Shown: positions 18 through 17,087 of the stretch, piece by piece
Layout of the letters: each line of letters opens with the position of its first letter
Position numbering within the stretch: the first letter of the stretch is position 1
DNA from: a virus
Virus record (IMG/VR): IMGVR_UViG_3300037510_000657
Span: 15,013-79,012 of that record
Reading direction: 5' to 3' (one strand)
DNA: 64,000 nt
Position numbers and translations under genes: made by a program
The notes under the pieces: generated by a model
Databases searched by the model: none
Told to the model about the DNA's origin: nothing
What the model saw: the letters and a program-made list of their open reading frames with translations, nothing else

Positions 18-641
18 ATGAAGGCTCACACCGCTCCGGGCTCGAGCTCGAAGGTGCGCGGCGCCATGGACCACGGTCTGCGCAACAAGGAGCGCTACGC
101 GGTCGGTGCGGGCGCGGCTGCGGCCGGCGTCGGCGCCAAGAAGGCGTTCGGCGGCAAGAACAAGGAGGCTTCGGCCTTCGAGAAGCTGGCCGAGCTCCGC
201 GCCGGTGAGCTCCTCGGCGCCGCTGGCGTCACCCCCGACATGCACAACCAGGTGATGCAGCAGCGCATCATGCAGGAGCAGGCTGCTCGTCAGCAGCAGG
301 CTCAGCAGCCGCAGAACCCGATGGCGGCGCTGCACCCGGCCTTCGCCGAGCAGCCTGGCCAGGAGCAGCCCGGCGTCGAGCAGGAGCAGCCTGCCGGTGA
401 CGAGCAGTTCAACGGCGCCCTGGACGAGCGCGCCCTCCAGCTGCTGGCGGAAGCCGGCTACAACGTCGACGCTCTCGTCGAGCAGCTGACCGGTGGTCAG
501 GGCGGCGAAGAGGGTCAGCAGGCCCAGGGTCAGCCTGGCCAGCAGCCGCAGCGTCCCGGCCAGCCCCAGCAGGGTGGCCAGTCGCAGGGCATCCCGAGCC
601 AGCAGGCCACTGGTGGCCAGGACGACGGAGCCCAGCAGTAA
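18..641 (+). CDS. Head-module protein with Q/P/G-rich tail (probably 5'-truncated by window edge)
   Basis: Frame is open to the window start; contains EKLA; followed by a terminator. Confidence 0.6.
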   Translation: MKAHTAPGSSSKVRGAMDHGLRNKERYAVGAGAAAAGVGAKKAFGGKNKEASAFEKLAELRAGELLGAAGVTPDMHNQVMQQRIMQEQAARQQQAQQPQNPMAALHPAFAEQPGQEQPGVEQEQPAGDEQFNGALDERALQLLAEAGYNVDALVEQLTGGQGGEEGQQAQGQPGQQPQRPGQPQQGGQSQGIPSQQATGGQDDGAQQ

Positions 642-725: not shown

Positions 726-1073
726 ATGCCGCAGTGGATTCACAACCGGGCCGAGCACATCCAGGACAAGAATCCTGGCATGCCGGAGTCCGAGTCGTGG
801 GCCATCGCGACGAATCAGTACAAGAAGTCTTCTGGCAAGGACAAGAGCGCCCAGCTGCTCCTGCCCTTCCTCGAAAGCTTCTCGGATGAGCTCTCCAAGA
901 TCGCGAACGCGATGATGGGCAGCCCTTCGACCGTGGGTGAGATCACCAGCACCGTGCCCAAGAACACGATGAAGATGACCACCCCGAAGTACACCAAGGT
1001 GAACCCCGATGGCCCGGCGAGCCCGGCCCAGAGCTACCAACCCGTACTGAGCCCGCCTCCAGTGCGGGGGTAA
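726..1073 (+). CDS. Hypothetical head-associated protein
   Basis: 115 aa; FSDELSKIANAMMG motif; in structural gene string. Confidence 0.6.
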   Translation: MPQWIHNRAEHIQDKNPGMPESESWAIATNQYKKSSGKDKSAQLLLPFLESFSDELSKIANAMMGSPSTVGEITSTVPKNTMKMTTPKYTKVNPDGPASPAQSYQPVLSPPPVRG

Positions 1074-1085
1074 CAGGAGAATGTC

Positions 1086-2477
1086 ATGAAGCCTCGGCTC
1101 CCACTCCAGGACATGATCGCCAGCGTCATCGAGACGGCCACGACCAAGCTCGCTTCCGACCAGGGCAACAAGAAGGTGCGTAACCTTCTGGCCTACGAGA
1201 AGAAGGAGCACGGTCACATCCCCACTCCCTCCGAGGAAGAGGCGGAGAAGACGGCCGGCTTCGACCTGACCGATCCGTCCTACATCGAGAAGCTGGCGTC
1301 CACGGTCGACCAGATCGCCGCCAACGTCGACAACATCGACGTCCGCCCCTCGGCCCTGAAGCAGGCGTCCGAAGGCTCGGCTGTCGGCGCGGGCAAGGGC
1401 CCGGGCGCCCTCGAGGTGTCGCAGGCCATCGGCGGCCAGCAGTCGCACAAGAAGGACCACTCGAAGACCCACGACGCGTCGAAGTCGACCGCGGACTCGC
1501 CCCTCTCGGCTGGCGGCCTCCCCGGCGGCAAGACCCAGATGGAGAACGACATGCACCACGCCCCCGGTGGCGGCAGCGTCGCTCCCACCGCGAAGTACCC
1601 GACCGAGGGCGTCTTCCGCACCAAGTCGGCGACCGACCGCTACGCGGCCGTCATCGCGAAGACCGCTGCGGAGATCCGCGGCGCCCAGGCGCCCGTCGTT
1701 CGTGAGCAGGCCCCTGCCGTCAAGACCGCCGGCGACAAGCTGCGCGCGGCCGTGATGAGCAAGCTCGCCGGCGAGGACGTCATGAAGGCGAACATCAGCT
1801 CGTCCAAGGACGGCGGCCCCCTCCCCGGTGACGGCGGCCTCAAGGTGATGCAGTCCGGCGAGAACGCCTCGGGCGAGTCGGGCAACGCCGGCTCGGGTGG
1901 CGGCAACAGCGCCCGCTCGAACATCGCCTCGAACAAGTCGGCGATCGACACCACCAAGGCCGACGCCAAGGGTCCCCAGAAGACCATGCTCGGTGAAGTT
2001 CTGGACGAGCCGGCGCTCAGCAAGAGCACCGACTCCGTCCTGCGCAACAACCTGCGGAATGCCAGCAGCGCTGGCGTGAAGATCGCAGCGGTCGCAGCCC
2101 TGAAGAAGATCGCTTCGGAAGGCTGCAAGTGTGATGGCAAGGGAGAGTGCGCTTCCTGCCAGCTGAAGTCGAAGGTCGCAGCAGCGAAGTCCAAGCAGGC
2201 GAACGCCATGATGGGCTACGGCGGCGGTGGTGGCATGGGCCAGGCCGGCGGCGGAGCCATGGGTGGCGGGATGTCGGCGACCGCTGACGCCGGAGCAGGC
2301 GCAGACGGATGCACGTGCGGCAACACCGGCGCGTGCCGAGTCTGCATGCTGAAGGCAGCTCTCGCTGCCGCGAAGGCTGGTGGCGGTGCCCCGATGGCCG
2401 GCGGCGGAGTGCCCCAGGGCGCTCCCGAGAAGGACTCCACCATGGGCGGATCGGCCCCGGTGGGCGGCCAGTACTAG
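1086..2477 (+). CDS. Low-complexity head-associated protein with two Cys clusters
   Basis: SD AGGAG; 14 K-x-A motifs by hand count; two CxC-x5-CxxC motifs. Confidence 0.65.
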   Translation: MKPRLPLQDMIASVIETATTKLASDQGNKKVRNLLAYEKKEHGHIPTPSEEEAEKTAGFDLTDPSYIEKLASTVDQIAANVDNIDVRPSALKQASEGSAVGAGKGPGALEVSQAIGGQQSHKKDHSKTHDASKSTADSPLSAGGLPGGKTQMENDMHHAPGGGSVAPTAKYPTEGVFRTKSATDRYAAVIAKTAAEIRGAQAPVVREQAPAVKTAGDKLRAAVMSKLAGEDVMKANISSSKDGGPLPGDGGLKVMQSGENASGESGNAGSGGGNSARSNIASNKSAIDTTKADAKGPQKTMLGEVLDEPALSKSTDSVLRNNLRNASSAGVKIAAVAALKKIASEGCKCDGKGECASCQLKSKVAAAKSKQANAMMGYGGGGGMGQAGGGAMGGGMSATADAGAGADGCTCGNTGACRVCMLKAALAAAKAGGGAPMAGGGVPQGAPEKDSTMGGSAPVGGQY

Positions 2478-2501
2478 ACCCGGAACAGGAGACAAACGAC
2501 C

Positions 2502-2849
2502 ATGAACAAGCTCGCAAGCAACAAGGTGGCCGGCGTCCTGAACCAGGTCGGTCCGGCCCTTCGCGCCCTCAGCGAAGAGAACCAGTCGCTGAAGGAGAAG
2601 ATCGCCCACTACGAGAAGCGGGAGCGGGTCGAGAAGATCGCGTCGTCCATGACGGCGAAGAACCTCGAGCCCGAGACCTCGTACGAGGAGAAGGTCGCCA
2701 GCCTCATGGCGTCCGGTGACCTCGACGTCGTGGAGAAGGCGATCTCGTTCTCTGCACCCCAGATCAAGCTGGCGGCACTCTCGGACGAGCCGGGCGGTGG
2801 CGCTGACGCGGCTTCGAACTTCGAAGCCTTCATCATCGCCGGCTCGTAA
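2502..2849 (+). CDS. Putative capsid scaffolding protein
   Basis: Coiled-coil, acidic; C-terminal hydrophobic helix ASNFEAFII; two genes upstream of the capsid gene. Confidence 0.5.
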   Translation: MNKLASNKVAGVLNQVGPALRALSEENQSLKEKIAHYEKRERVEKIASSMTAKNLEPETSYEEKVASLMASGDLDVVEKAISFSAPQIKLAALSDEPGGGADAASNFEAFIIAGS

Positions 2850-2882
2850 CGAACAACCGCTGACGACAAGGAGATTCCGACA

Positions 2883-3365
2883 ATGTCCACCGCCCCTCAC
2901 CTGAATCTGCTCTCCCCGGTTCTGCCGGTCGATCGCCGTGACTTCTACATGGACGACCCGACCCTCCTGAACCCGAACAACGCCAACCCCATCATCGATG
3001 GCGAGTGGCTGTCGCTGGACACCACCAGCGGCAAGCTCATCCGTGGCTCGGGCACCCTGGCGACCATGTCGTTCCAGGTCTTCTCCGAGAAGGGTCGCTA
3101 CGACACCCAGCCCATCGGCAAGGTGACGACCCTGTTCCTCGGTGGCTACGAGGCCGAGACCGACGTCTACACGTCGACCGGCCTGGCCATCAACTCCTTC
3201 CTGGTGGTCGGCGACGTCACTGTCGGTGGCCTCACCAAGAAGGGCCTCATCAAGCTGCCGACCGCCTCGGGTTCGTACCTGGTGGTCGGCTCCGTGACCA
3301 AGCTCCCCACGGGCAAGGTCCGCTACGTCAAGTTCGCCTCGCCCTGGCTGCGAGTCGTCCCGTAA
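2883..3365 (+). CDS. Putative capsid decoration/minor capsid protein
   Basis: 160 aa beta-rich protein immediately upstream of the major capsid gene. Confidence 0.5.
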   Translation: MSTAPHLNLLSPVLPVDRRDFYMDDPTLLNPNNANPIIDGEWLSLDTTSGKLIRGSGTLATMSFQVFSEKGRYDTQPIGKVTTLFLGGYEAETDVYTSTGLAINSFLVVGDVTVGGLTKKGLIKLPTASGSYLVVGSVTKLPTGKVRYVKFASPWLRVVP

Positions 3366-3415
3366 CCGAGCCGGAACAACCCGGTTAACTGAAGAACAGG
3401 AAACAGGAGATCACA

Positions 3416-4531
3416 ATGAGCAACGTTCCGGCGAGAGTACTGAACGACCTCTTCAACCAGCGGCTGGACACGTCCGAAGGCCGCGAGAAGGTCGCCGAGC
3501 AGGGTTCGGTCTACATCCGTGACCGTCTGCGCGAGGTCTGCTTCGTGGACAAGATCCTGCCCCCCGACCCGGTCACCCGGGCGGACTGCCAGGTCTCGGT
3601 CAACCACGACACGCTCGTGAAGATCGTCGAGATCGAGCCCAAGAGCCGCGCGATGACCATGTCGTTCCGTGGCCAGCCCACGGCGCGCTTCATCCGCGCT
3701 CCCCGCGTCGAGTGCCCCTTCTACACCATCTCCTCGGAGAAGTTCGAGAAGACGGAGCAGGAGCTCCTGGCGTACCAGATGCCGATCACCAAGGTGATCG
3801 AGGACAACTCGGTCAAGGATCTCCAGGAGATCAAGGACCGCGAGTTCCTCCGCTACATCGAGGCGGCGGTCCAGGCCCTGCAGTCGGATGCGAACGGTGG
3901 CGCGACCGCGCTCCGCGCGTCGACCTACGCGGCGACCGTCAAGAAGTCGGTCATCAAGGGCATCGGCGCCCAGGGCGCGTCGTCGGATGACTTCACGGTC
4001 TACCCGATCCTGCGCCCCGACCTGGTGAACCTCTTCAAGCTCATGGACGGTGAGCGTCTGCGTACGGAGCGGTTCATCATGACCGAGCCGGACTACGACG
4101 ACGTCCTCGCCTGGACCCTCCAGGACATGGGCGACAAGATGCAGTCGGAGACCATGGTCGACGGCTACAAGTACAACACGCTGCTCGGCCGCAAGCTGAT
4201 CCGCACCATCAAGACCGACATCCTGCGCATCGGCAACGTGTACGCGTTCGCCGCGCCGGAGTTCCTCGGCAAGAACTTCGTCCTCAACAACACGAAGTTC
4301 TACATCGACAAGGTGGCGAACCTGATCACCTGGCAGTCGTGGATGGACATCGGCATGATCATCGCGAACATCGCGTCGGTCCGGAAGCTCGAGCTGTACC
4401 CCGGCTCGGTGACCACCTCGGCCACCGACTCGGGCTACGCGGCGAAGCTGCCCGTGGAAGAGGACGAGCTGGGCGCGGAGAACAACAAGGTCGACAGCGG
4501 CCTCAAGTACCCCGACGTCTCGCAGTTCTAA
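3416..4531 (+). CDS. Major capsid protein (probably HK97 fold)
   Basis: 371 aa; strong SD; strongly biased codons; terminator downstream; position after scaffold/decoration-like genes. Confidence 0.7.
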   Translation: MSNVPARVLNDLFNQRLDTSEGREKVAEQGSVYIRDRLREVCFVDKILPPDPVTRADCQVSVNHDTLVKIVEIEPKSRAMTMSFRGQPTARFIRAPRVECPFYTISSEKFEKTEQELLAYQMPITKVIEDNSVKDLQEIKDREFLRYIEAAVQALQSDANGGATALRASTYAATVKKSVIKGIGAQGASSDDFTVYPILRPDLVNLFKLMDGERLRTERFIMTEPDYDDVLAWTLQDMGDKMQSETMVDGYKYNTLLGRKLIRTIKTDILRIGNVYAFAAPEFLGKNFVLNNTKFYIDKVANLITWQSWMDIGMIIANIASVRKLELYPGSVTTSATDSGYAAKLPVEEDELGAENNKVDSGLKYPDVSQF

Positions 4532-4563
4532 GCGAGGCGCAGGGCTGTCCCTGCACACATACT

Positions 4564-4605
4564 GGGGGCACCTGGACAACTCGGTTCGGGTGCCCCCTTT
4601 TCTTT
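4564..4605 (+). terminator. Intrinsic terminator after capsid gene
   Basis: GGGGGCACC/GGTGCCCCC stem followed by TTTTCTTT. Confidence 0.8.
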
Positions 4606-4641
4606 CTTGGCTTCTTGGCAAGAAGGACGGAGGCTGGAACG

Positions 4642-5220
4642 ATGTGGAAGATCACGAATACTGCGTTCGACCGTAACAAGGAACTCCTGCACCGGCAGGC
4701 GGCCAAGTTCAACCCGTGCCCCATGGTGGGCGGCAAGGTCCTCCGCCGTGGTGACTCGATCACCATCAGCGACGAGGTCTTCGCCACGACCGAGACCTAC
4801 CTGCGCGAGCTGGTGCGTACCGGCGTCATCGTCATGGCTCGTCTGGGCGTCACCGAAGACCCGAGCGGCATCGGCACCTCGCCCAGCGACCCCGACGCCA
4901 AGCACACGGATGGTGGCATCATCATCTCTGCTCCGAAGGCTGCCCACACCGATGGCGGCATCATCGTCACGGAGCCCCTCAAGACCGGCGTCATCATCAC
5001 CGACCCCCTGAAGGTCGAAGCGCCCGCCGGCGATGATGTGGCCCCTGTCGACGAAGTCGCGGCTGTCGAAGCCTCCGTCGAAGAGGTCGCCAAGACCGAG
5101 GAGTTCCTGGCCGATGTCGAAGCCGGCATCAAGGAGCTCGACGAGGGCAAGGGCGTGAGCACGGAAGAGCTCAAGGCGTCGTTCGAGGGCAAGAAGAAGA
5201 ACAAGAAGAACCGGCAGTAG
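4642..5220 (+). CDS. Post-capsid protein with GIGTSPSDP and HTDGGII repeats
   Basis: ATG 4642 after GGAGG; N-terminal domain resembles 5231..5608. Confidence 0.65.
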   Translation: MWKITNTAFDRNKELLHRQAAKFNPCPMVGGKVLRRGDSITISDEVFATTETYLRELVRTGVIVMARLGVTEDPSGIGTSPSDPDAKHTDGGIIISAPKAAHTDGGIIVTEPLKTGVIITDPLKVEAPAGDDVAPVDEVAAVEASVEEVAKTEEFLADVEAGIKELDEGKGVSTEELKASFEGKKKNKKNRQ

Positions 5221-5230
5221 GAGGTGACCC

Positions 5231-5608
5231 ATGATCGTCGTGGTCACCAACATCACTGATGTGCCTGGCGACCGTGGGGCAAGCCCTACGGAGGTCGAGG
5301 TCTACAACAAGCGTCTCGCCCCTGGTGGGACCCTGCGCCTTCCGGCCGAGCTCGTGAACAAGCGAGTCCGGGACCTGGAGAAGCAGGGCCTCGTCGCCAT
5401 CGGAGCGGTGCCGCCCTGGTACGTCCGGGCCAAGACCCGTGGCGGCAGCAGGGCCCTCACTGCGGAAGAGAAGGCCAAGCGCAACGTCACCCCTCCCCCT
5501 CCGCCGGCTCCGCCCGCGAAGGTTCTCCTCCTCGAAGACGTCGTCCCTGCCGTCATCGAAGGCGACGAGTTCGAGCTCAAGGCTTCGAAGAAGCAGAAGA
5601 AGGGGTAG
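5231..5608 (+). CDS. Post-capsid small protein, paralog-like to 4642..5220
   Basis: SD GGAGG; shared pattern TN...L.pG.s..i..e.....lr.L...G. Confidence 0.6.
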   Translation: MIVVVTNITDVPGDRGASPTEVEVYNKRLAPGGTLRLPAELVNKRVRDLEKQGLVAIGAVPPWYVRAKTRGGSRALTAEEKAKRNVTPPPPPAPPAKVLLLEDVVPAVIEGDEFELKASKKQKKG

Positions 5609-5610
5609 CC

Positions 5611-6102
5611 ATGTCGGATATCGTCGGCACCTCTGTCCCGTCCATCGAGCTCGCCATGGAGCAGTTCATCTCCACGGTGCGTCTCTTCACTCGCGACTAC
5701 CCGGCGTTGAACCGGCTCATCCAGGGTGAGGAGAGCTCGAACCGCCTCATCGCCTGGGCGGTCATCGACGCCATCGACGACTTCAACTCGACCCCTCCGC
5801 TCACCCGGTGGGGCTTCTCCAACTTCCCCTCTCGCCACCTTCTCCTGCGGGGCACGGTCATCAGCCTCCTGGAGTCGGTCGGCCTCCTCATGACCCGCAA
5901 CCACCTCACGTTCTCGGACGGCGGCATCCAGGTGGGCGTGAGTGACAAGACCCCGCTGATCCAGTCGTGGATCCAGCTTTTCACCAACAAGTACGAAGAG
6001 AAGAAGCTCCGTCTCAAGATCTCGATGAACATCGAGGGTGCCTGGGAGGGCGGCGTCCACTCGGAGTACCTCTGGACCTCCGGCTTCTACGGGGGCTGGT
6101 AG
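5611..6102 (+). CDS. Putative head-tail adaptor/head completion protein
   Basis: 163 aa helical protein downstream of the capsid gene. Confidence 0.45.
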   Translation: MSDIVGTSVPSIELAMEQFISTVRLFTRDYPALNRLIQGEESSNRLIAWAVIDAIDDFNSTPPLTRWGFSNFPSRHLLLRGTVISLLESVGLLMTRNHLTFSDGGIQVGVSDKTPLIQSWIQLFTNKYEEKKLRLKISMNIEGAWEGGVHSEYLWTSGFYGGW

Positions 6103-6141
6103 GGCCTTCCCACCCAGTGCCTCTGAGAGGAGAATGACCCC

Positions 6142-6297
6142 ATGGCTGCTGCAATTCCCAAGTTCGACGTCGCGATCTTCGCCGACCCCCACGCTCTCAA
6201 GCTCTTCGTGAACAACGGAAGCAGCGTGGTGGCTTCGATCGTCGACATCGTCTGCGACTCGAGTGGCAAGTACATCCTCTTCTACATCCACACCTAG
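6142..6297 (+). CDS. Small hypothetical protein (51 aa, not in ORF track)
   Basis: MAAAIPKFDVAIF...FYIHT; SD GAGGAG; fills the gap between neighbours. Confidence 0.5.
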   Translation: MAAAIPKFDVAIFADPHALKLFVNNGSSVVASIVDIVCDSSGKYILFYIHT

Positions 6298-6306
6298 GAG
6301 ACGACG

Positions 6307-7068
6307 ATGGACAACGACTTCGACTTCTACGGTGGGCTGCGAGACGAGGACGATGTCCAGTCGGAGCGCCATGCCGCGGCCGAGCACTTCGTTCGCCTGA
6401 AGAAGCAGCACGGTCACCTTCCCGACAACGACCCCCAGCCGCTCGAGAAGGAGGCCATGATGGGCGCTCTTCTCGGTGCGGCCGCCAAGGGCATCGGCGG
6501 TCTGGCCACTCGCAAGGGTGTCGCCAGCCTGGCCGGCAACGTCGTGAAGGACGCTGTCGTCGGCAAGGCTGTCGGTGCTGTGGGCAACGCCATGAAGCCT
6601 GCCGCCGCTCCCGTGCAGCAGGCTGCCCAGGGCTTCAAGTACGCCGGCCTCGGCGCCATCGTCGCGGACGTGACGGGTGCCAAGGACAAGCTCAAGAAGG
6701 CGGTCGAGGAGCTCAAGGAGAAGAAGGCCAACGCCCTGGCCGCCATCAAGGACCCCGCCTCGTGGCCGTTCATGGCTGCGGGCGGTCTTCTGGCCGGTGG
6801 TCACTCCATCATGCAGAACCGCCCCAAGAAGGACCTGGGCGGCAAGAGCGAGAACGAGATCTCGAAGGAAGACGCCGTTGCCCGGCTTCGTGCCCGCGGC
6901 GAAGAGAAGGGTCTCTTCCAGAAGCTCAAGAACCGCACCACGGAGATGGAGGCCGGTACTGCCAAGGCCCTCCGTGAGCACCCCGTCAAGGCATCCCTGA
7001 TCGGCACCGGCGTCGGTGCTGGTCTCGGCCTGGGCCTGGCACAACTGCTCGGCGCCGGAGGCAAGTAA
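6307..7068 (+). CDS. Glycine-zipper-containing virion (possibly ejection) protein
   Basis: KEAMMGALLGAAA, KYAG, and C-terminal GTGVGAGLGLGLA segments. Confidence 0.55.
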   Translation: MDNDFDFYGGLRDEDDVQSERHAAAEHFVRLKKQHGHLPDNDPQPLEKEAMMGALLGAAAKGIGGLATRKGVASLAGNVVKDAVVGKAVGAVGNAMKPAAAPVQQAAQGFKYAGLGAIVADVTGAKDKLKKAVEELKEKKANALAAIKDPASWPFMAAGGLLAGGHSIMQNRPKKDLGGKSENEISKEDAVARLRARGEEKGLFQKLKNRTTEMEAGTAKALREHPVKASLIGTGVGAGLGLGLAQLLGAGGK

Positions 7069-7069
7069 C

Positions 7070-8590
7070 ATGAAGGACTGGCTGGTCAAGCTCGCAGAGA
7101 TGGAGCCCACGGACGAGCAGCAGTACGCCGAGGCGGTGGCTCAGCTGCCCCTCGAGGACCTGCTCGAGATCGCCAACGACCGTCCCGAGACCGTCTCGGA
7201 GATGGACACCCTCGCCGAGAAGATGGCCCACTACGACCAGCTCGGTCGGGAGATGGCCCACCAGCACGGCGAGGAGCTCATGAAGACCGCCTTCTCGATC
7301 ACGGAGAAGGGGCACGAGTACGATGCCAAGAAGCATCGCCTGCTCGCTCGGCAGAATGCCGAGATGGGAGCATTGCGCCAGGACTACCAGTCCATGGCCG
7401 GCATCGGAGCTCCGGCTACTCTCGGGTCGGTATTCCGCTTCGGCTTCGCCGAGGACCGCCCGGATGCCGCGGCTCGTCATCACGAGTACGTCGCCAAGAA
7501 GCACGAAGAGGGGAAGAACGCCTGGAACCCGCTGGGCGGCATGCTCACTCCCTCTTCTCACGAAGAAGGCGGAACTACTGGTATCGGCAGTCGGTACGGC
7601 AAGTCCGTCCCGAAGCCCGACAAGAAGCCCGACCAGGAGACCGAGAAGAAGGCCAACGTCATGAGCTCGCTCGTGGCGGCCGGTGGCGGCAAGGGCGGCA
7701 AGCTCCTGTCCGGCGCCGCGCAGATGATGCAGAAGAACCCCACCAAGGCGCTGGCCATCGGCGGTGCTGCGGTCGGAGCAGTCAACGGCCTCACCCGTGA
7801 CCCCGGCGTGGACCCCGCAACGGGCCAGCCTCGCTCGCGTCTCGCCGGCGCTGCCAAGGGAGCCATCGGTGGTGGAGCTCTCGGAGCGGCCGCGGGTCAC
7901 TTCGCCCCCAAGGCAGTCGGTGGTCGTGTCCAGGCCGCCGGCAAGCAGCTCGGTGGAGCTGTCGCTGCACACACTCCCGGCCCGCTCACCCAGATGATGC
8001 CCTCCATGCCGGCCGCCGGTAGCTCCGGCAACGGAGTGCTCCAGGCCAAGCCCGGCATGATGGACAGGCTGAAGGCCCGCTTCGCTGGTCCGAAGGCCCA
8101 GCCCTCGGTGCCCGGCGCTGCTGTGGCTGGTCCCGAGTGGGAGCAGAACAAGGTCGCCAAGGAGAAGCTCGCCATGCTGGCTTCGATGTGCGGCTCGAGC
8201 GGTGGCGGGGACACCTGGCTCTCGCAGTTCGAAGGCACTCCCCTCATGGAGAAGGCCATCGCCCTGGAAGAGCAGGAGCTCCAGATGGAGATGGCGGAGA
8301 TCCAGAAGCGTCAGCAGGATGCGGCCGAGAGCGAGGCTCGGATGCAGGAGAGCCAGGCTCGGTGGGCCCAGGTCGACCAGCTGAACCTCCAGCGCCGTGT
8401 TCTTGCGCTCGAGCTCGCCAAGTACAACATGGGCGCCGACAGCGTCCTCGCCCCCATGGGCGGTGCTCCCCAGGGTGCCGCTCCTCCCGCCCCTGACCAG
8501 GGTGCTCAGCCCTCTGCGCCCCCTGCTCCCGCCGATGCGCCTCAGGGCCAGCCGGACGCCGGCCAGGCCAAGGTCGCGTACCGGTTCTAG
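7070..8590 (+). CDS. Glycine-zipper/coiled-coil virion (possibly ejection) protein
   Basis: ATG 7070 directly after previous stop; K-x-A-bounded segments; GAAKGAIGGGALGAAAG. Confidence 0.55.
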   Translation: MKDWLVKLAEMEPTDEQQYAEAVAQLPLEDLLEIANDRPETVSEMDTLAEKMAHYDQLGREMAHQHGEELMKTAFSITEKGHEYDAKKHRLLARQNAEMGALRQDYQSMAGIGAPATLGSVFRFGFAEDRPDAAARHHEYVAKKHEEGKNAWNPLGGMLTPSSHEEGGTTGIGSRYGKSVPKPDKKPDQETEKKANVMSSLVAAGGGKGGKLLSGAAQMMQKNPTKALAIGGAAVGAVNGLTRDPGVDPATGQPRSRLAGAAKGAIGGGALGAAAGHFAPKAVGGRVQAAGKQLGGAVAAHTPGPLTQMMPSMPAAGSSGNGVLQAKPGMMDRLKARFAGPKAQPSVPGAAVAGPEWEQNKVAKEKLAMLASMCGSSGGGDTWLSQFEGTPLMEKAIALEEQELQMEMAEIQKRQQDAAESEARMQESQARWAQVDQLNLQRRVLALELAKYNMGADSVLAPMGGAPQGAAPPAPDQGAQPSAPPAPADAPQGQPDAGQAKVAYRF

Positions 8591-8593
8591 TAC

Positions 8594-9481
8594 ATGCTGA
8601 ACGTCACCAAGTTCTACGCGAAGTCCTTCGACCTCGACCACCTGGACATCTTCTGGGAGCTCGGGGACTTCGACGGTGACATCCACCGCTACCAGTTCAT
8701 CCTGCGGCGGTCGGAGGGTCCTGTCGGGCCCTTCGAGCAGCTCTGCGCTCCCTTCGAGGACCAGTACTACTTCCGGGACACCACGCCGGCGCTGCTGCAC
8801 AAGTGGCGCAACCTGTACTACGAGCTCGAGATCATCGACAAGCAGACCAGCGAGAGCATGAAGGTCGGCCCCACCGCCCAGGTCCCCGAGCCCGATCTCA
8901 TCGGTCTGGAGATCATGCGGCAGGAGGATGTGCTCTTCCGGGAGCATGTCGGTCGCCGCTGCTGGCTCTTCCCCGTGCGGACCTTCGGCGCCAAGTGCGT
9001 CTGTTTCGACCGAGTCGCCGGAAGACGAACGAAGTCGAACTGCCTCAACTGCTTCGACACCGGCTACCTGGGTGGCTACCTGTCCCCCATCGAGTGCTTC
9101 GTGCAGCTCGACCCGAACGCCAACGCCCCCCAGAACACCCCCATGGGAGAGCAGCAGTCGAACCTCACCTCGGCCAGGCTCATTTCCTTCCCACCCGTAA
9201 AGCCTAAGGATATCTTGGTGGAAGCTGAGAACCACCGGTGGCGGGTGACCCAGGTGAACACCACTCAGCGCCTTCGGGCAGTGGTTCACCAGGAGCTGGT
9301 ACTGAAGCAGATCGAGGGCGGCGACGCCGAGTACAGGGTCCCCATCAACATCAGCGACCTCCGGGCTCTGGCTCCTGCGTCCGAGCGGAACTTCTCGAAC
9401 CCACAGCATGTCGACGAGCCCCTCAATGTCAAAGACCTACTCGCCGTGTACGGCTATAAGCCGCGCGGCAGTGCTCGATGA
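8594..9481 (+). CDS. Putative neck/head-closure protein with Zn-finger-like motif
   Basis: CVC...CLNCFDTGYLGGY motif; lies between head and tail genes. Confidence 0.45.
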   Translation: MLNVTKFYAKSFDLDHLDIFWELGDFDGDIHRYQFILRRSEGPVGPFEQLCAPFEDQYYFRDTTPALLHKWRNLYYELEIIDKQTSESMKVGPTAQVPEPDLIGLEIMRQEDVLFREHVGRRCWLFPVRTFGAKCVCFDRVAGRRTKSNCLNCFDTGYLGGYLSPIECFVQLDPNANAPQNTPMGEQQSNLTSARLISFPPVKPKDILVEAENHRWRVTQVNTTQRLRAVVHQELVLKQIEGGDAEYRVPINISDLRALAPASERNFSNPQHVDEPLNVKDLLAVYGYKPRGSAR

Positions 9482-9770
9482 GCTGGTGAAGATCGGCGAA
9501 GCTGCCGAAGCCAAGAAGGGTCCCATGGGGGCCATCCTTGCCGGCGGTGCTGGTACGGCCCTGGGATGGGGGGCGGCGGAGCTCATGGGGAGGAAGATGA
9601 AGTTCTTCTCCCAGGTTCCGACCTCTCCGGCCGTTCTCGACAAGAGGGTCCGAGCAGCGAAGTTTATCCTTCCCATACTGACCGGTGCTGCTGGCATTCT
9701 AGCGGACAGGTACAGACAGTCGATGAACGAGCACCACCGACAGGTGCCCGGCTACCAAGAGAAGAAGTGA
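9408..9770 (+). CDS. Small membrane-segment virion protein (start uncertain: 9408, 9426 or 9471)
   Basis: VLDELVKIG motif; two Gly/hydrophobic segments. Confidence 0.5.
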   Translation: MSTSPSMSKTYSPCTAISRAAVLDELVKIGEAAEAKKGPMGAILAGGAGTALGWGAAELMGRKMKFFSQVPTSPAVLDKRVRAAKFILPILTGAAGILADRYRQSMNEHHRQVPGYQEKK

Positions 9771-10537
9771 TGTCTACCGAGCAGGTAACCCCAGGACTGG
9801 TTGAAGCACAGGGCATCGGCGAAGAGCCGCTGTTCTACTTCACCCGCGTCTACCTGCTCTTTCTCCAGGGTCTCTTCGGAGACATGGAGCCCGGCTCGTA
9901 CAAGTGGTCGAGCGATGAGAAGCTCACCGAGATCTCCATCACCGACCAGGCCGCCATCCCGAAGGACCGGATCGGTCAGCGGCCGCACATCGTCACCATG
10001 CGCGGGCCGGCCCAGTACGCCCGGCTCTCGCTGGACCAGATGCTCTACGTGGACCCTCGCACGGGAGCCAAGACTCGCTCGGACCTTGTGGCCTGCACCA
10101 TGACGCTGAACTGCATCGCCAAGAACGGCGTGGAGGCTCAGCGCATTGCGTGGCAGGTCATGCGTGGCCTCCGCTCCTTCAAGGAGATGATCCAGCGCGA
10201 GGGCAAGATGCACATGATCGGGGAGGACGTCTCCATCGGTCCCGAGTCCCCTCCTGGCGCGATGGTCGCCGGCGAGGCCGATCCGGAGTGCGTCATGGTC
10301 ACCGTCCACTCCCCCTTCTTCTTCCAGTGGAAGGAGACGGTCACGCCCCTCGATGGTCAGCGTCTCTCGCACATCGAGCTGCACATCCGAGCTGGCCTTT
10401 CGAATCCTGCTGCCCTCACGACCGCTGCCGCGGTTCGCATGAGGGAAGTCATCGGGGCACCGACGATTCGGGGCCGCGTCATCAACTCGGCTCCGTCGTA
10501 CCCGAGTTCGCCAATCGACCAAAAGGTCGAGACCTAG
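9770..10537 (+). CDS. Putative tail completion/terminator protein
   Basis: TGATG coupling; directly upstream of sheath gene. Confidence 0.45.
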   Translation: MSTEQVTPGLVEAQGIGEEPLFYFTRVYLLFLQGLFGDMEPGSYKWSSDEKLTEISITDQAAIPKDRIGQRPHIVTMRGPAQYARLSLDQMLYVDPRTGAKTRSDLVACTMTLNCIAKNGVEAQRIAWQVMRGLRSFKEMIQREGKMHMIGEDVSIGPESPPGAMVAGEADPECVMVTVHSPFFFQWKETVTPLDGQRLSHIELHIRAGLSNPAALTTAAAVRMREVIGAPTIRGRVINSAPSYPSSPIDQKVET

Positions 10538-10549
10538 AAGGAGAAGCCC

Positions 10550-13500
10550 ATGGCTGCCGAACTTCCCCGCCCCGGCGTAGAGATCATCCAGTCGTTCACC
10601 TCCGCGTCCCCGACCATCGTCCGGCCGACTCTCGTGCCGTGCGTTGCGGGTGCCGCGAAGGAGATCGTGGAGGTCACCAAGGCCGATGGCACGCTGAACA
10701 GCGACGCGAAGCAGGGTTCGTACGACCAGCTTCCCCGCACCATCTCGCAGACCAGCTTCCCCTCGCCCCGAGACAACATCTCGGAGGTGGACGTGGAAGA
10801 GGCGACCATTCGCGCCTTCCTGCTCTTCGGCGGCAAGCTGAACGAGCTCGAGCGTGAGCCCGGCGAGTCCTTCCTGGTCGGCTTCAACAACGCGTGCCGG
10901 CCTGCCTTCCGCTCGGCCTACTTCGTCACGTCGACCGGTCTCGACCTCGACGGCACCGTCCTGGTCATCGCGATCGACACCCAGGTTCCGGCCAACACCA
11001 CGAAGGACATCACCGTCACCTTCGCCTCGGACGGCAGCAACCTGACCCCGGCCCAGATCTGCGACCAGATCAACGCCGCGGTGGGTGACGACGTCGCCTC
11101 CGAGGTCGTGCTCGGCTCCAACAGCCGCATCCAGATCGCGTCGAACAAGTTCGGTGCGGCCGCGTCGGTCACCATCCGTGCGGGTGGCTCGGCCAACACG
11201 CTGTTCGGCCTGACGGGAAGCGCCGAGTACCGGGTCACCGGTTCGGGCTTCCGCGCCCAGGAGCAGAACAACAACACCACGCTCTCGCCCTGGATCGAGT
11301 GGTCTCCCGGCACCTACCTGGTGGACGGCGCCACGACCGCCATCCCGACGTACGATGACGACATCCCGACCGCCGGCTTCTCGGTCGGCTTCCTCGACAG
11401 CACCGACGACACTGCCTTCTCGGCAGCCTTCGTGCAGTCCTCGCTCGTCTTCACCTCGTCGGGTCTCGACCTCAAGGTCGGCGACGAGTTCGTGGCGGAT
11501 GGCGTGCTGCCCAACACGACCGCCGTCATCATGAAGGTGGAGTCCAGCCGCTTCAAGCTGGGCATCCTGAACGCCACCCTCTCGGTCTTCGACGACAACG
11601 GCAAGGTCACCTCCGCCGTCTACGACCAGAGCTCGGTCAACACCCTCCTGGCCTCGTCCGCCTTCGCGCCCCGCTACGCCTGGTTCATGGCGAAGGGTCT
11701 CGAGGTGAACGACACGGCCACCGCTGCCGAGCTCACTGGCTCGGTCTCGGGTACGGCTGCCACCACGGCGACCATCGAGGCTCCCTCGGTCCTCGCTGGT
11801 TCGTCGCCCTACGCCCTGGCCGGCCTGACCCTCGACTTCGACGTCACCGTCGATGGCGTGGCCCAGGACACCCAGACCTTCACCTTCACCGGCGGCCCCT
11901 TCGCCGACCTGACGGCCGTCATCGCAGCCTTCAGCGGTGTCGATGGTGTGTTCGCTCACACGGACACGGGCGGCACCAAGATCGCCTTCTCCACCGACCT
12001 GACCGGCGCTCAGCAGTCGCTGACCATCCGTGACAGCTCGACCGCCCTGGCCGCTCTCGGCTTCTCGGCCTCGACCGAGTACTCGGATGACGGCACGGAC
12101 GTGGAGTTCGTGGACGTGGCGGCCATCCTTCTGGGCGGCACGCAGACGTTCCCCTTCACCGCGGTCAACGGCGAGACCTTCATCGTCCAGATCTCCACGG
12201 ACGGTGGTCTCACCTACCCGACCACGAAGACCTACACCTTTGCGACCGGCAACCTGTCGTTCGCGAACATCGCTGCCCTGGTGACCGAGCTCGGCACGGC
12301 CACTCGCTGGGCTGGCGGTGTGCTGCCCACCCAGTTCGCCATCACGGCGCAGGGCAACAAGCTGAAGATCACCTCCACGGATACGGGTAGCCTGGTGGCT
12401 CTCCGCATCGGTTCGTCGTCCACCGCCATCGGTGCGACCACGAACTCCGACCTGCTCTTCACCTCGCTGCAGGCGGACGTGGGCGAGGAGAACCTCAACG
12501 GCCAGACCCTCGAGTTCACCATGAACGACCGTGAGAAGACCTACTCGGTCGTCTTCACGAGCGATTCGCTGGTGGACGCCGTGGCCGCCATCAACGAGGT
12601 GGTCGGCACCACCGTGGCCTCCATCGGCGGCGATGCGGACGACCAGCTCGTCCTCACCTCGACGCTGAAGGGCTACGCCTCGGCGATCGACGTCTCGGCC
12701 GGCTCTACCTCGACCAAGGCCCGCAACGCCCTGGGCTTCGGCTCGGGCAACACGTCGGCCGATGGCTCGGGCCGTCCCAACCCCGACTTCTCGGTGGACG
12801 TCTCGGGCAACGTGGTCCTGGGCGCCGAGATCATCCGCTCGGCCCTGACCGGTGCTCCGTTCGACCCGGGCAACGCGGACATCTACATCCAGTACCGCGG
12901 CCTCCGCAAGGACGTGTCGCCGGTGGCCTCGAGCCCCGCGCTGCTCCGCATCAGCGACATCGCCACCCTGCAGACGGTGCTCAGCCCGCTGACTGCCGAC
13001 AACCCCCTGGGTCTCGGCATGTTCTTCGAGATGATCAACGCCCCTGCGGTGGAGTGCACCGGCATCGGCGTGGACGAGACCTCGTCGGCGAAGCCCTACG
13101 GCACCCTGGCCGCCTTCGCTCGCGTCACCAGCTTCCTCGAGTCGCAGGAAGTCTACGCTCTCGCGCCCCTCACGGACGACGTGACCGTGCACTCGCTCTT
13201 CGAGACGCACGCCACCACCATGTCCGGCTCCACCCAGAAGGGCGAGCGCATCGTCTTCGTCTGCCCGCCGGTTCCCACCCGGGCGGTCGATGACGTCGTG
13301 GGCTCGGGTCTCTCGGGCGGCACCACCGCCACGGAGAACCAGTTCCTCCTGGACGACAGCGTCACCGGCGGCCTGACTGACCGTGGCCTGAACCCGCTGG
13401 ATCTGGCTGTCGACGACAACGTCGTCCTGACCATCGAGGTCAGCGGCGAGGTGCGGCACTACAGCGTGTCCGCGGTCAACAACACCCTGGTCACCGTGCG

Positions 13501-14275
13501 CGACTCGTTCGACACGGGCGAGAACGAGGACGGCTACTTCAGCACCGCCACCCTCAGCGAGACCCTGGTCAACGAGGACTGGTCGCTGGCTGTCCGCGGC
13601 GACAAGCTGCTCATCCCCGGCTCGACCCTGCCCGACAAGGCCCTGATCGCCGAGACCGTCCAGGCCTCGAACCAGGCCCACGGTCAGCGCCGTCTCTACT
13701 CGTTCTTCCCGGACACAGTGAAGGCGACGGTCGGCGGCATCGAGCAGGAGCTCCCGGGCTTCTACGCCTGCGCGGCGACGGCCGGCATGGTGGCGAAGTT
13801 CCCGCCTCAGCAGGGCTTCACCAACCTGCCCATCACCGGCTTCACCGGTGTGGTCGGCGCTCGCGACAAGTACTCGGAGCAGCAGCTCGACGTCATGGCC
13901 GCTGGTGGTACCTACATCATCGTCCAGGACGCCGTGGGCGCTCCCCTGGTGTGCCGTCACCAGCTGTCGACCAACCTCACCTCGATCGAGACCCGCGAGC
14001 TCTCGATCACCAAGGTGGTCGACTTCGTGGCGAAGTTCATGCGCGTCGGTCTGCGCAACTTCATCGGCACGTTCAACATCACCCAGCCCTTCCTGGACAC
14101 GCTCTCCACGGTGATCCAGGGCATGCTCGGCTTCCTCACCGAGGCCGGTGTCATCAACGGTGGTGACCTCAACAACCTCATCCAGTCCGAGGACCAGCCG
14201 GACACCGTGCTGGTGGACGTCACCCTCGACGTTCCGTTCCCCTGCAACTACATCCGCCTGACCCTGGCCATCTAA
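10550..14275 (+). CDS. Contractile tail sheath protein
   Basis: N-terminal PRPGVEIIQS; C-terminal ELSITKVVDFVAKFMR...DTVLVDVTLDVPFPCNYIRLTL typical of sheath termini. Confidence 0.8.
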   Translation: MAAELPRPGVEIIQSFTSASPTIVRPTLVPCVAGAAKEIVEVTKADGTLNSDAKQGSYDQLPRTISQTSFPSPRDNISEVDVEEATIRAFLLFGGKLNELEREPGESFLVGFNNACRPAFRSAYFVTSTGLDLDGTVLVIAIDTQVPANTTKDITVTFASDGSNLTPAQICDQINAAVGDDVASEVVLGSNSRIQIASNKFGAAASVTIRAGGSANTLFGLTGSAEYRVTGSGFRAQEQNNNTTLSPWIEWSPGTYLVDGATTAIPTYDDDIPTAGFSVGFLDSTDDTAFSAAFVQSSLVFTSSGLDLKVGDEFVADGVLPNTTAVIMKVESSRFKLGILNATLSVFDDNGKVTSAVYDQSSVNTLLASSAFAPRYAWFMAKGLEVNDTATAAELTGSVSGTAATTATIEAPSVLAGSSPYALAGLTLDFDVTVDGVAQDTQTFTFTGGPFADLTAVIAAFSGVDGVFAHTDTGGTKIAFSTDLTGAQQSLTIRDSSTALAALGFSASTEYSDDGTDVEFVDVAAILLGGTQTFPFTAVNGETFIVQISTDGGLTYPTTKTYTFATGNLSFANIAALVTELGTATRWAGGVLPTQFAITAQGNKLKITSTDTGSLVALRIGSSSTAIGATTNSDLLFTSLQADVGEENLNGQTLEFTMNDREKTYSVVFTSDSLVDAVAAINEVVGTTVASIGGDADDQLVLTSTLKGYASAIDVSAGSTSTKARNALGFGSGNTSADGSGRPNPDFSVDVSGNVVLGAEIIRSALTGAPFDPGNADIYIQYRGLRKDVSPVASSPALLRISDIATLQTVLSPLTADNPLGLGMFFEMINAPAVECTGIGVDETSSAKPYGTLAAFARVTSFLESQEVYALAPLTDDVTVHSLFETHATTMSGSTQKGERIVFVCPPVPTRAVDDVVGSGLSGGTTATENQFLLDDSVTGGLTDRGLNPLDLAVDDNVVLTIEVSGEVRHYSVSAVNNTLVTVRDSFDTGENEDGYFSTATLSETLVNEDWSLAVRGDKLLIPGSTLPDKALIAETVQASNQAHGQRRLYSFFPDTVKATVGGIEQELPGFYACAATAGMVAKFPPQQGFTNLPITGFTGVVGARDKYSEQQLDVMAAGGTYIIVQDAVGAPLVCRHQLSTNLTSIETRELSITKVVDFVAKFMRVGLRNFIGTFNITQPFLDTLSTVIQGMLGFLTEAGVINGGDLNNLIQSEDQPDTVLVDVTLDVPFPCNYIRLTLAI

Positions 14276-14287
14276 GGAGACACGACA

Positions 14288-15106
14288 ATGCCCGTCACCC
14301 TTTCCTCGAGCATCCTGAGCACTCTCCGTTCGCTGGCCGCACGCGGTGACCAGACGGCGGTGGCACTCGTCGCCATCATGAACGGAACGAACACCGCGGC
14401 TCTCACGGCTGCTACCGAGGCTTCCGAGATCATCCGCATCAGCGGTCAGGTCAAGGACGCCGATGGCCAGGCCGTGGCCGCAGTGAAGAACGTGCGCGTC
14501 AAGGCCAAGCTGGCTCTCGGCACGCCCAAGACCGAAGTGGTCGTCGCGACCGCCGCGGCCCTGCCCGCCTGCACCGCCGCGGGTACCGGCGTGGGCCACA
14601 CCCTGACCGCCGACGCGGTCGGTGTCCTCACGATCGACGGCGTCGCCGTTGCCTCGGGCGACCGCATCCTGGTGAAGAACCAGGTGGCGGGAGACGACAA
14701 CGGTATCTACACCCTGACCACCGTCGGCACCGGCGGCGTGGCCTTCGTGCTGACCCGCGCCACCGACTTCGACGCTCTGGGCGAGATGCCCTACGGCTCG
14801 AACGTCTTCGTGCGCACTGGCAAGGCGAACGCCGGCAAGACCTTCGTGCTGACCTCGACGGTCGTCACGGTGGACACCACCGCCCTGACCTTCACCGACC
14901 TCGACACCCTGGTCACCCTCGGCCTCGGCGCCGCGGGCGCCACGGTCAAGTCCGGCACCGGAAGCCGCGACCTCTGGCTGCAGACGGCGTCCACTGGCGC
15001 CTTCTCGGTCGATGTCACCTCGGTGTCCGCCTGGACCGGTGACGTCCTCCTCGAGGTGGATGTCGACAACGGCGAGACCGAGCTCCTGGTCGTCACCTTC
15101 GCGTAA
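14288..15106 (+). CDS. Virion structural protein (fibre/appendage-like domain)
   Basis: GDRILVKNQ...DNGIY...LTRATDFD segment seen in phage fibre-type proteins. Confidence 0.5.
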   Translation: MPVTLSSSILSTLRSLAARGDQTAVALVAIMNGTNTAALTAATEASEIIRISGQVKDADGQAVAAVKNVRVKAKLALGTPKTEVVVATAAALPACTAAGTGVGHTLTADAVGVLTIDGVAVASGDRILVKNQVAGDDNGIYTLTTVGTGGVAFVLTRATDFDALGEMPYGSNVFVRTGKANAGKTFVLTSTVVTVDTTALTFTDLDTLVTLGLGAAGATVKSGTGSRDLWLQTASTGAFSVDVTSVSAWTGDVLLEVDVDNGETELLVVTFA

Positions 15107-15164
15107 GCGAAGATGTGAGACAATCAGGTAGAATCGGAAGACGCCCGGAAGAAGGAGCCCCGAG

Positions 15165-15890
15165 ATGGCAAAGCTGAGTGAGTGGAAGCCCTACGAGCGG
15201 TACGTTCAGGGAGGCCTGGTCGATGGCCAGTACCTGTCGGCCGCCTTCACCATGGTCGCTGCTGGTCCGCCTCGTCTGGCGAACATCGGCGGCGCCGGCG
15301 CTGCGGCTGGTGCTCTCTCGACTGCTGATGGCAGCTCCCAGAAGGACTGGGCTCTTCCGATCGGCGTCGTCCAGAACATCGGTCTCTCGCACAACCGCAA
15401 CTTCGCCCGGTTCTGGGAACTGGGCTCGGAGAGGTCGTACTTCATCTCCGGTCGCACGGTGGGCCAGCTGCAGCTGAGCCGGATCATGTACCACGGTCCG
15501 TCTCTGCTCCGCATGCTGTACGCCTACTACCAGGACCTCATCCCGCCGACGGTCGTTCCCTTCGTCTACCCGAACCCCGGGGCGGCGACGGTGGCGAACC
15601 CGCACGACGTGAAGATCCCGCCCGGCTACGAGAACATCTTCCTCAACCTGGCCTCGGACCTCTTCAGCCAGCCCATCGGCCTGCTGATGTACTTCCGCGA
15701 CTCGAACGAGGACACGGTCGGCGCCATCTACATGGAGGGCTGCTACGTGCCCTCGCACCAGATCGCCACCGACGCCGGCGGCACGGTCATCCAGGAGTCG
15801 GCGGCCATCCAGTTCGAGCGGGCCGTCCCCGTGGCTGTGAAGGGCCTGGCTCTCATCACCGGTCAGTTCAACCCGCAGACCGGCTTCTAA
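15165..15890 (+). CDS. Tail tube protein
   Basis: 241 aa beta-rich; IGVVQNIGLS...ELGSERSYFISGRTVGQLQLSR; downstream of sheath. Confidence 0.6.
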   Translation: MAKLSEWKPYERYVQGGLVDGQYLSAAFTMVAAGPPRLANIGGAGAAAGALSTADGSSQKDWALPIGVVQNIGLSHNRNFARFWELGSERSYFISGRTVGQLQLSRIMYHGPSLLRMLYAYYQDLIPPTVVPFVYPNPGAATVANPHDVKIPPGYENIFLNLASDLFSQPIGLLMYFRDSNEDTVGAIYMEGCYVPSHQIATDAGGTVIQESAAIQFERAVPVAVKGLALITGQFNPQTGF

Positions 15891-15902
15891 GGGAGGCGCT
15901 AC

Positions 15903-17087
15903 ATGGATCGCGAACTGGCTACCGCGGTTCTTCAGCGTTGGGAGGAGGGGCTCCCCGTCACTGAAGGCAACCTGTACAAGGCAGCGTCTGTCCTGGGCAT
16001 CGACCCGGGCCAGGCCCTGCTCGAGGCTCGCTACTACACGCAGCTCGACAAGTACCTCGAGAAGCGTGGCAGCATGACTCCTGCCCAGCGCCAGCTCTTC
16101 TCGGCTGCTGCCGGCATGGACTCCCGCGTCATGGTCAAGACCGCTTCGTGGTCTGGCTTCTCTCCCGAAGAGCTCATCATCGAGGCCCTGCGCGAGAACG
16201 ACTTCGCACCCGACCTCGAGAAGCTGGCAAACCTGTCCGCGGCCGGTGGTGATCCCACGGTGGCGGCCGGTCCCGGTGCGGCTGGTCAGGGTGGCCCGGT
16301 GGACCCGGCGGCGATGGGCGGCCAGGACCCACAGAAGCCCCAGCCCGGTGCTGCAGTGCAGCAGAACCCGGCAGCTCGCTTCAAGCCCTCGCCCACGGCT
16401 CCCGACCAGGCTGCTCCCAGCCCGGCCGGCAACCTGGACGCTCTCCTGGCCGAGACCCAGGGCGTCTACGGGCAGCAGGCTCAGGACAACGGCGGCCTGC
16501 CCCCTTCGGGCCAGCCCCAGCCTCCTCCGCCCCCGCCCGACCCCACGGAGCGTGTGCGCCAGGTGGCCCCGGCCCTGGACGACGAGACGGCCGGTCGCTA
16601 CGCCGACGCCCTTACTCGGCTCGAGGAACAGGTCGGCATGCCTGTCCAAGACCCGAAGCAGATGGTCAAGTTCGTCAAGGAGATGCAGAAGGTCGACGGC
16701 AAGAGGATCGACCAGGGCATCAAGGCGGTCGGAGAGCAGCTCGAGCAGGAGCAGGCGGCCGAGCTGGGTGTGGGCAACCAGACCTTCGCTCCCGGCCTGG
16801 GCCCCGAGGCCATGAACGGCGGAGCCGCCGGTGGTCCTCCGGGTGCTGGTGGTCCTGGCGGCGGCGCCAAGCCTCCCCAGGCAGGTCCACAGGGCCCCGC
16901 GGCCCAGGAACAGCCCAACGAGGAAGGCCCGCCTCCCGGCGGTCCCCAGAGCGCTGCAGGCCAAGCCCAGGGAATGCCCCCGAAGCAGAAGCAGCAGCCC
17001 AAGCCGGCTCCCCAGCAGACCCCGCAGGCAGCCGCAGAGAAGGTGGCCCATGCCGCACGCCACATGGCCCGGTGCCGTAACCAGTGA
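15903..17087 (+). CDS. Hypothetical virion protein with P/Q/G-rich regions
   Basis: SD GGAGG; VKTAS, EKLAN and EKVAH motifs. Confidence 0.6.
   Translation: MDRELATAVLQRWEEGLPVTEGNLYKAASVLGIDPGQALLEARYYTQLDKYLEKRGSMTPAQRQLFSAAAGMDSRVMVKTASWSGFSPEELIIEALRENDFAPDLEKLANLSAAGGDPTVAAGPGAAGQGGPVDPAAMGGQDPQKPQPGAAVQQNPAARFKPSPTAPDQAAPSPAGNLDALLAETQGVYGQQAQDNGGLPPSGQPQPPPPPPDPTERVRQVAPALDDETAGRYADALTRLEEQVGMPVQDPKQMVKFVKEMQKVDGKRIDQGIKAVGEQLEQEQAAELGVGNQTFAPGLGPEAMNGGAAGGPPGAGGPGGGAKPPQAGPQGPAAQEQPNEEGPPPGGPQSAAGQAQGMPPKQKQQPKPAPQQTPQAAAEKVAHAARHMARCRNQ

Follow-up and report, generated by a model that had tools for sequence, protein, structure and literature searches.

A lysine-x-alanine motif in the head-module proteins of a phage contig as a candidate prohead-protease signal

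The sequence under study, hereafter the window, is a stretch of 64,000 nucleotides that covers bases 15013-79012 of the 105,876-base IMG/VR viral contig IMGVR_UViG_3300037510_000657, the completeness of which is estimated at approximately 50%. The G+C content is 61-66% across the window. Its first genes belong to a head module, and the subject of this analysis is a short motif in their products, a lysine followed two residues later by an alanine (K-x-A), which an initial annotation of the window proposed to be a cleavage code for a prohead protease. The capsid gene (3416..4531, plus strand) corresponds to PHROG 2522, “major head protein”. The capsid protein has 131 relatives in viral contigs, several of them 190-210 kb in length, and its nearest cultured relatives are those of Salmonella phage Arash (28% identity) and of the Vibrio phages D69/D148/D181 (25%). 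In genome coordinates, the large terminase gene occupies 6939-9098 and the capsid gene 18428-19543. The gene of a protease polyprotein, at 12242-14503, is therefore placed between the two, in the head module. Comparison of ten head-region proteins with PHROG and Pfam gave no match apart from the capsid protein, and none of the genes of the contig was recognised as a portal gene.

The module enters the window with the C-terminal 207 codons (1..641) of a gene for a disordered protein of 364 residues, the start of which lies 453 bases before the window. This is followed by the genes of a 115-residue head-module protein (726..1073), of a mostly disordered protein of 463 residues that is scaffold-like or internal to the head (1086..2477), and of a candidate scaffold, again of 115 residues, that is encoded two genes upstream of the capsid gene (2502..2849). 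Beyond the capsid gene are those of two hypervariable virion proteins, one Gly-rich and of 253 residues (6307..7068), the other of 506 residues (7070..8590), and of a 394-residue protein rich in Pro, Gly and Gln (15903..17087). All of these genes are on the plus strand.

The counts on which the initial annotation had based its proposal all reproduce. The motif takes up 14 of the 41 lysines in 1086..2477 and six of the ten in 2502..2849 (KLA, KVA, KIA, KIA, KVA and KLA), and the capsid protein carries it near the N-terminus as K25-V-A27. When the counts are set against a composition-shuffled null, as had been recommended, the enrichment persists in three proteins (5,000 composition-preserving shuffles per protein). 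There are 14 occurrences in 1086..2477 vs. 6.7 expected (p 0.003), six in 2502..2849 vs. 1.55 (p 0.002) and nine in the 364-residue protein vs. 3.5 (p 0.003). The motif is also present, as had been claimed, in 726..1073, 6307..7068, 7070..8590 and 15903..17087, with counts of 2, 6, 9 and 5, but none of these is significant individually (p 0.08-0.29); the expected numbers are 4.6 for 6307..7068, 5.5 for 7070..8590 (p 0.08) and 2.8 for 15903..17087 (p 0.13). In the same shuffles, lysine and alanine at spacings +1 and +3 are not enriched. The effect is thus specific to +2, and local segments rich in both residues are controlled for. The contrast that had been drawn with a tail sheath and a tail tube holds in its numbers (one of 28 lysines in 10550..14275, none of five in 15165..15890); the two labels are putative, as neither gene has a PHROG match.

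When all 400 residue pairs were scanned without bias at spacings of 1-4, K+2A came out as the top pair of the head-module proteins (z 5.7), with E+1K second or third depending on the set of proteins. Across eight head-module proteins, [LIMVF]-x-K-x-A is found 38 times vs. 6.4 expected (z 12.9), and the same pattern with [SAG] at +3 is found 22 times vs. 1.9 (z 14.7). As read from the sequences, the real signal is longer than the bare triplet and takes the form [L/M/I]-x-K-x-A-[S/A/G]. The six most enriched of the 155 open reading frames (ORFs) of the contig all reside in the packaging and head block, genome positions 2-17,861. Five head-core proteins have a ratio of 2.42, and the other 150 ORFs, when pooled, contain 156 occurrences vs. 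135.5 expected, a ratio of 1.15. A motif at the level of the DNA was considered and rejected. The 70 K-x-A sites are encoded by 41 different 9-mers with background codon use, which points to a signal at the level of the protein.

Two further proteins of this block lie upstream of the window. One is an unannotated 534-residue fragment (genome positions 2-1606) that is cut by the end of the contig; its 14 K-x-A, EKTAS and EKLAS among them, compare with 4.0 expected. The second is an unannotated protein of 339 residues (10294-11313) with eight vs. 2.6 expected, in which K150 and K258 are 94-97% conserved. The sequences suggest that the set of putative substrates reaches upstream of the window.

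The fate of the sites in evolution was followed in orthologues of each head-module protein, taken from 80 related loci. Five consecutive proteins together have approximately 20 K-x-[A/S/G] sites that at least 60% of the orthologues retain (11-66 orthologues, with an overall identity of 35-65%). The conserved sites are often islands inside otherwise hypervariable linkers, and their weighted logo reads [L/M/I]-E-K-[I/L/T/V]-A-[S/A]-A. With seven proteins pooled, the conservation of lysine is 0.49 within K-x-A and 0.26 elsewhere (Mann-Whitney p 8e-5), and 32% of the K-x-A lysines are at least 80% conserved vs. 9% of other lysines.

The best-conserved sites of the 364-residue protein, K19, K28 and K115, are encoded upstream of the window. 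The product of 726..1073 has a conserved LSKIAN (K58, bases 897-905), and the similar DLSKIAN is found in Arash gp225. In the 463-residue protein, the conserved sites are K21 (1146-1154), K55 (1248-1256), K69 (1290-1298), K226 (1761-1769), K332 (2079-2087) and K341 (2106-2114), and in the candidate scaffold they are K3 (2508-2516), K33 (2598-2606), K45 (2634-2642), which is 95% conserved, and K64 (2691-2699). The N-terminal EGKEK[IVL]AE of the capsid protein (K25, bases 3488-3496) is almost invariant among 68 orthologues. The capsid proteins of Arash and Vibrio D181 have L[VT]KEAG (K27) at a comparable distance from the N-terminus.

The two Gly/Ala-rich proteins encoded at 6307-8590 are less readily compared, with only 6-7 BLAST orthologues among the 80 loci. 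Their relatives contain insertions of hundreds of residues, and what is conserved is mainly the termini and a C-terminal block. In the 253-residue protein, LEKEA (6448-6456) and KEKKAN (6721-6729) remain K-x-A in just 1-2 of seven relatives. The 506-residue protein has sites conserved near both ends, LVKLAE (7088-7096) and AEKMAH (7220-7228) and the C-terminal AKVAY (8570-8578), among few alignable relatives. The protein of 15903..17087 has no BLAST orthologues among the related loci examined.

The recurrence of the sequences that flank the motif, also put forward in the initial annotation, is real, but one of the examples, DELVKIG (near window position 9477, in the ORF 9408..9770), is K-I-G and not K-x-A. 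In three proteins the motif is followed by a Met/Gly-rich stretch, as SKIANAMMG, SKQANAMMG and EKEAMMG (897-923, 2193-2219 and 6448-6468). In the 463-residue protein this site is kept only in the closest relatives, which read KQASPMMG and EKTAMMNG. These contexts may be the result of recent exchange, or else mark where Gly-zipper segments begin.

A prohead protease had been recommended for search in the rest of the genome. A candidate is located just upstream, and was hence missed in the window. It is the N-terminal domain, approximately residues 61-247, of a polyprotein encoded by a 753-residue ORF (L003; G000:C1:12242-14503) that ends 509 bases before the start of the window. Residues H132 and H133, the sequence S189-M-G and a cluster of three cysteines are invariant among 29 sequences. 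An AlphaFold2 model built from the orthologue alignment has a confident core at residues 50-246, with a predicted local distance difference test score (pLDDT) of 80-96. The best VIA-align match of this core is T4 gp21 (5jbl_A; Z 9.2, root-mean-square deviation 2.8 Å, 130 aligned residues), and the next rows are more than 30 structures of herpesvirus assemblins (Z 5-7.7). Nearly all the top rows of Foldseek are likewise assemblins and gp21, with weak E values of 0.05-0.2 and none at or below 0.001. A phmmer search of the domain against the sequences of the PDB gave chance matches only. In a MAFFT alignment, H133 and S189 share columns with H85 and S140 of T4 gp21, which we take to be the catalytic residues of that enzyme. 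The cysteine cluster (C199/C202/C213) follows the putative catalytic serine; T4 gp21 is without it, and several orthologues add an insert of approximately 35 residues there.

Homologues of the domain were found through tblastn in Vibrio D181 (40% identity), in Arash as gp222 (39%) and in phage G as gp19 (32%). Matches annotated as prohead or capsid maturation proteases, with E values of 4e-7 to 2e-10, include those of Rhodococcus phage E3 and Gordonia phage Pupper. The gp19 of phage G has been named a head maturation protease in a report that gives no cleavage sites (PMC12484599). On the modelled structure, the candidate is a member of the fold class of T4 gp21, HK97 gp4 and the herpesvirus assemblins.

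The placement of K-x-A within the polyprotein follows its domains. The protease core is succeeded by an InPase domain (PF18823, residues 341-462, E 2e-33) and a helical C-terminal domain (508-753), for which a look-up of Atlas structures returned TM scores that were all below 0.35 and no usable lead. The motif is absent inside the protease core and the InPase domain. One site, [LMF]EK[TAQ]A at K32, precedes the core and is 89% conserved, and two more, K251 and K258, come right after the last core strand within the invariant GADKTAKVMAKLA, where the pLDDT is below 50. K335 stands just before the InPase domain and is kept in close relatives only. The linker after this domain contains K473 (95%), K493 and K505, and K708 is in a loop 45 residues from the C-terminus. 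K251/K258 and K708, each in a low-confidence segment, are conserved in 82-97% of orthologues. In a second AlphaFold2 model, K335, K473, K493, K505 and K708 all fall in segments of pLDDT below 50 that separate the confidently folded domains.

In the alignment of polyprotein orthologues, K-x-A-[S] islands are the sole conserved columns of hypervariable linkers. They bracket lineage-specific insertions in the orthologues L007:3921-6014, where the insertion is RRM-like (LYVGNL...), L028:3858-6221 (approximately 200 residues) and L047:4034-6073 (approximately 100 residues). As judged from the alignment and the models, this placement is the pattern of a polyprotein that would be cut at its module boundaries. 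The InPase domain is known from the polyvalent proteins of mobile elements, and is therefore probably an enzyme that is packaged in the head.

The same signal is found in distant cultured relatives. The unbiased scan returned K+2A first in the head-module proteins of Arash (gp220-225; z 6.15), followed by L+2K, K+3S and M+2K, and first again in the head proteins of Vibrio D181 (z 7.57), where L/M+2K and K+3S also accompany it. In phage G, K+2A is weaker overall (z 2.8) and is enriched in gp19 and gp21 of that phage. In phage G, as in Arash and Vibrio D181, the protease core is closed by a K-V-A site, LEKVA or LQKVA. The scan was also applied to T4 gp67, gp68, gp21 and gp22 as a positive control; there I+2E took the first rank and L+2E the next, in agreement with the motif known from experiment for gp21. 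T4 gp21 has an I-T-E of its own at the position of K-L-A in the protein studied here. With the lysine as position 0, position -2 is hydrophobic at 86% of sites in Arash and 79% in D181, compared with a background of 27%; position +1 is at background and +3 is Ser/Ala. The determinants thus fall on alternate residues (-2, 0 and +2), an arrangement that fits binding as an extended strand and not the i+3/i+4 spacing of a helix.

The reading of the motif as a cleavage code is supported by the conservation of the sites, the protease upstream, the relatives and the T4 control, and is amended in that the motif is longer than K-x-A. It is probable, on the sequences and the models taken together, that the prohead protease of the phage itself recognises [L/M/I]-x-K-x-A with S/A/G after it and cleaves there. 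The cutting itself and its position after the alanine are what we infer from the analogy with known enzymes. The predicted site would have a hydrophobic residue at P5, lysine at P3, alanine at P1 and a small residue at P1′, an assignment that rests on the proteases of T4, phiKZ, SPN3US and the herpesviruses, which all read P3-x-P1.

In the proposed mechanism, the substrate would be bound as an extended strand with its hydrophobic residue, lysine and alanine at P5, P3 and P1, and would be cut after the alanine and before the small residue. Cleavage within the prohead would release the protease from its polyprotein and separate the cargo modules, including the pyrophosphatase-like InPase domain. 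The protease would also trim an N-terminal peptide of approximately 27 residues off the capsid protein. The disordered scaffold or internal proteins from -453..641, 726..1073, 1086..2477 and 2502..2849, and probably that from 7070..8590, would be chopped so as to let the DNA in.

To our knowledge, the cleavage rules of prohead proteases have been determined experimentally for only a few phages (T4, phiKZ, SPN3US and HK97) and for the herpesviruses. T4 gp21 cuts at I/L-x-E, phiKZ gp175 at S/A/G-x-E and SPN3US gp245 at A-x-E (PMC10052503). The enzyme proposed here resembles T4 gp21 as its best structural match, with aligned His and Ser and the P3-x-P1 architecture. In both systems the motif is enriched in scaffold or core proteins, is found by the same scan and flanks the core of the enzyme itself. 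The differences lie in the predicted P1, which is Ala and not Glu, in P3, which is Lys and not aliphatic or small, and in the additional hydrophobic P5. Moreover, the phage enzyme shares its 753-residue protein with cargo domains and has the invariant three-Cys insert after the putative catalytic Ser, and the identity to gp21 over the 130 structurally aligned residues is 16%, a negligible sequence similarity.

The herpesvirus assemblin polyprotein, UL26/UL80, has release and maturation sites that are cut after Ala and before Ser/Thr (PMC4498786). It shares with the phage polyprotein the fold class and the layout of one ORF with an N-terminal protease, a linker and a C-terminal domain. A conserved site right after the protease core and another approximately 45 residues from the C-terminus are also held in common, as are the predicted P1 Ala and small P1′. 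However, P3/P4 of the herpesvirus sites are aliphatic or Tyr, compared with the predicted Lys at P3 and hydrophobic P5, and the phage has many sites over many separate proteins. Nothing points to a nested in-frame scaffold gene in the phage, although no search of internal starts was made.

Arash, the Vibrio phages D69/D148/D181 and phage G are alike in their homologous proteases, the K-x-A signal and the K-V-A at the end of the core. They differ in that their P2 is not hydrophobic, and the Arash protease protein is shorter, at 491 residues. Mass spectrometry of the Arash virion has identified 116 structural proteins with 72-100% coverage and is published without a peptide list, so that processing is neither shown nor excluded (PMC10585845). 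The searchable papers contained no cleavage rule for Arash, Vibrio D69/D148/D181 or phage G, a paper on jumbo capsids (PMC5646251) holds nothing on cleavage, and no description of a K-x-A cutting rule for phages was found in the literature searched. Lysine at P3 with alanine at P1 would thus be a novel specificity in an enzyme of an established type.

Several observations weigh against the cleavage reading. The third catalytic residue was not found. Herpesvirus proteases have a Ser-His-His triad, and here there is an HH dyad at 132-133 and no conserved His after S189 in the 29 sequences. The match of the protease domain to PHROG 18299, “head maturation protease”, is weak (E 0.0027), and no Pfam match was returned even at E values of up to 10. 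Of the K-x-A triplets, only about one-third to one-half are conserved, and the bare triplet thus over-counts the real sites. In the cluster C mycobacteriophage ET08 (L088, record 43857-47717), a homologous protease forms the N-terminus of a 1286-residue protein that adjoins one of 1281 residues, and K+2A is not the top pair (z 2.2). It follows that the code is not universal in this protease family, and in the ET08 branch the sequences indicate that the cutting rule may differ. The remaining observations on this side, namely the length of some sites and their possible helicity, are also what the two main rival explanations draw on.

It has been considered that the motif is an uncleaved docking peptide, by which scaffold, internal and cargo proteins would be anchored to the inner surface of the capsid, to the portal or to the scaffold core. 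This would be similar to the cargo-loading peptides of encapsulins or to that part of the T4 capsid-targeting sequence which serves targeting. The motif does recur in many head-module proteins, often near termini and module boundaries, and some conserved sites lie within islands (VEKLASAVEYL) that are longer than the footprint of typical protease subsites and go beyond what a protease needs. The T4 sequence combines overlapping signals for targeting and for cleavage, which means that one role need not preclude the other. Nevertheless, the sites tightly flank the catalytic core of the protease itself in four distant lineages, and determinants on alternate residues with a small residue at +3 fit the subsites of a protease. 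The density of approximately one site per 20-35 residues in the scaffold-like proteins is also that of T4 gp22, where the same scan finds a cleavage motif. Docking without cleavage is therefore regarded as unlikely.

A by-product of secondary structure is less likely still. According to this explanation, amphipathic or coiled-coil helices in scaffolds rich in Ala, Lys and Glu tend to begin with E-K-hydrophobic-A, and no enzyme recognises it. In the phage studied here, +1 is hydrophobic at 50% of sites, and the enrichment of hydrophobic residues at -2, +1 and +5 is heptad-like and also fits an amphipathic helix. In the polyprotein, the invariant K660 falls within a helix that is modelled with confidence. 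On the other hand, the enrichment of alanine is at +2 only and not at +3, and most of the conserved sites of the polyprotein are in linkers of pLDDT below 50, not in helices. The identities of the lysine and the alanine persist while their surroundings diverge, and in Arash and D181 it is -2, 0 and +2 that are constant, with +1 no different from background, which weakens a helical a/d reading. As for chance, composition or an in-frame nucleotide signal, Ala and Lys are abundant in the proteins and the G+C content of the genome is 65%, but the z values of 5.7 to 14.7 against shuffles, the recurrence of the pattern in relatives that have other hosts and presumably a lower G+C content, and the diversity of the 9-mers with their background codon use refute it; the probability left to it is minute.

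Prohead proteases set which proteins remain in the capsid, and in what form. On balance, though with less assurance than for the single phage, the evidence leans towards an assemblin-fold protease of undescribed specificity (a hydrophobic P5, Lys at P3, Ala at P1 and a small P1′) in a broad clade of mostly uncultured phages of 180-500 kb, comprising this lineage and the Arash-like, Vibrio D69-like and phage G-like phages. The motif would then act as a punctuation that defines the cargo modules packaged in the capsid. If so, sequence alone could reveal the proteome of the mature virion and the enzymes that accompany the DNA on delivery, such as the InPase domain or the RRM-like insert of a relative. 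Mature head proteins, propeptides and packaged cargo would thereby become predictable across a large lineage. At P1 and P1′, such a rule would be closer to the herpesvirus sites than to the Glu-ending sites of the T4 type.

Minor observations concern genes further into the window. The gene 14288..15106 matches PHROGs of head decoration and of tail fibres. Two ORFs on the plus strand overlap at 9408-9770 and 9566-10537. The homology of the longer ORF to its relatives starts only at residue 69, and 9408..9770 has homologues of its own in five loci. From this it appears that both genes are probably real, with the true start of the downstream gene near 9770.

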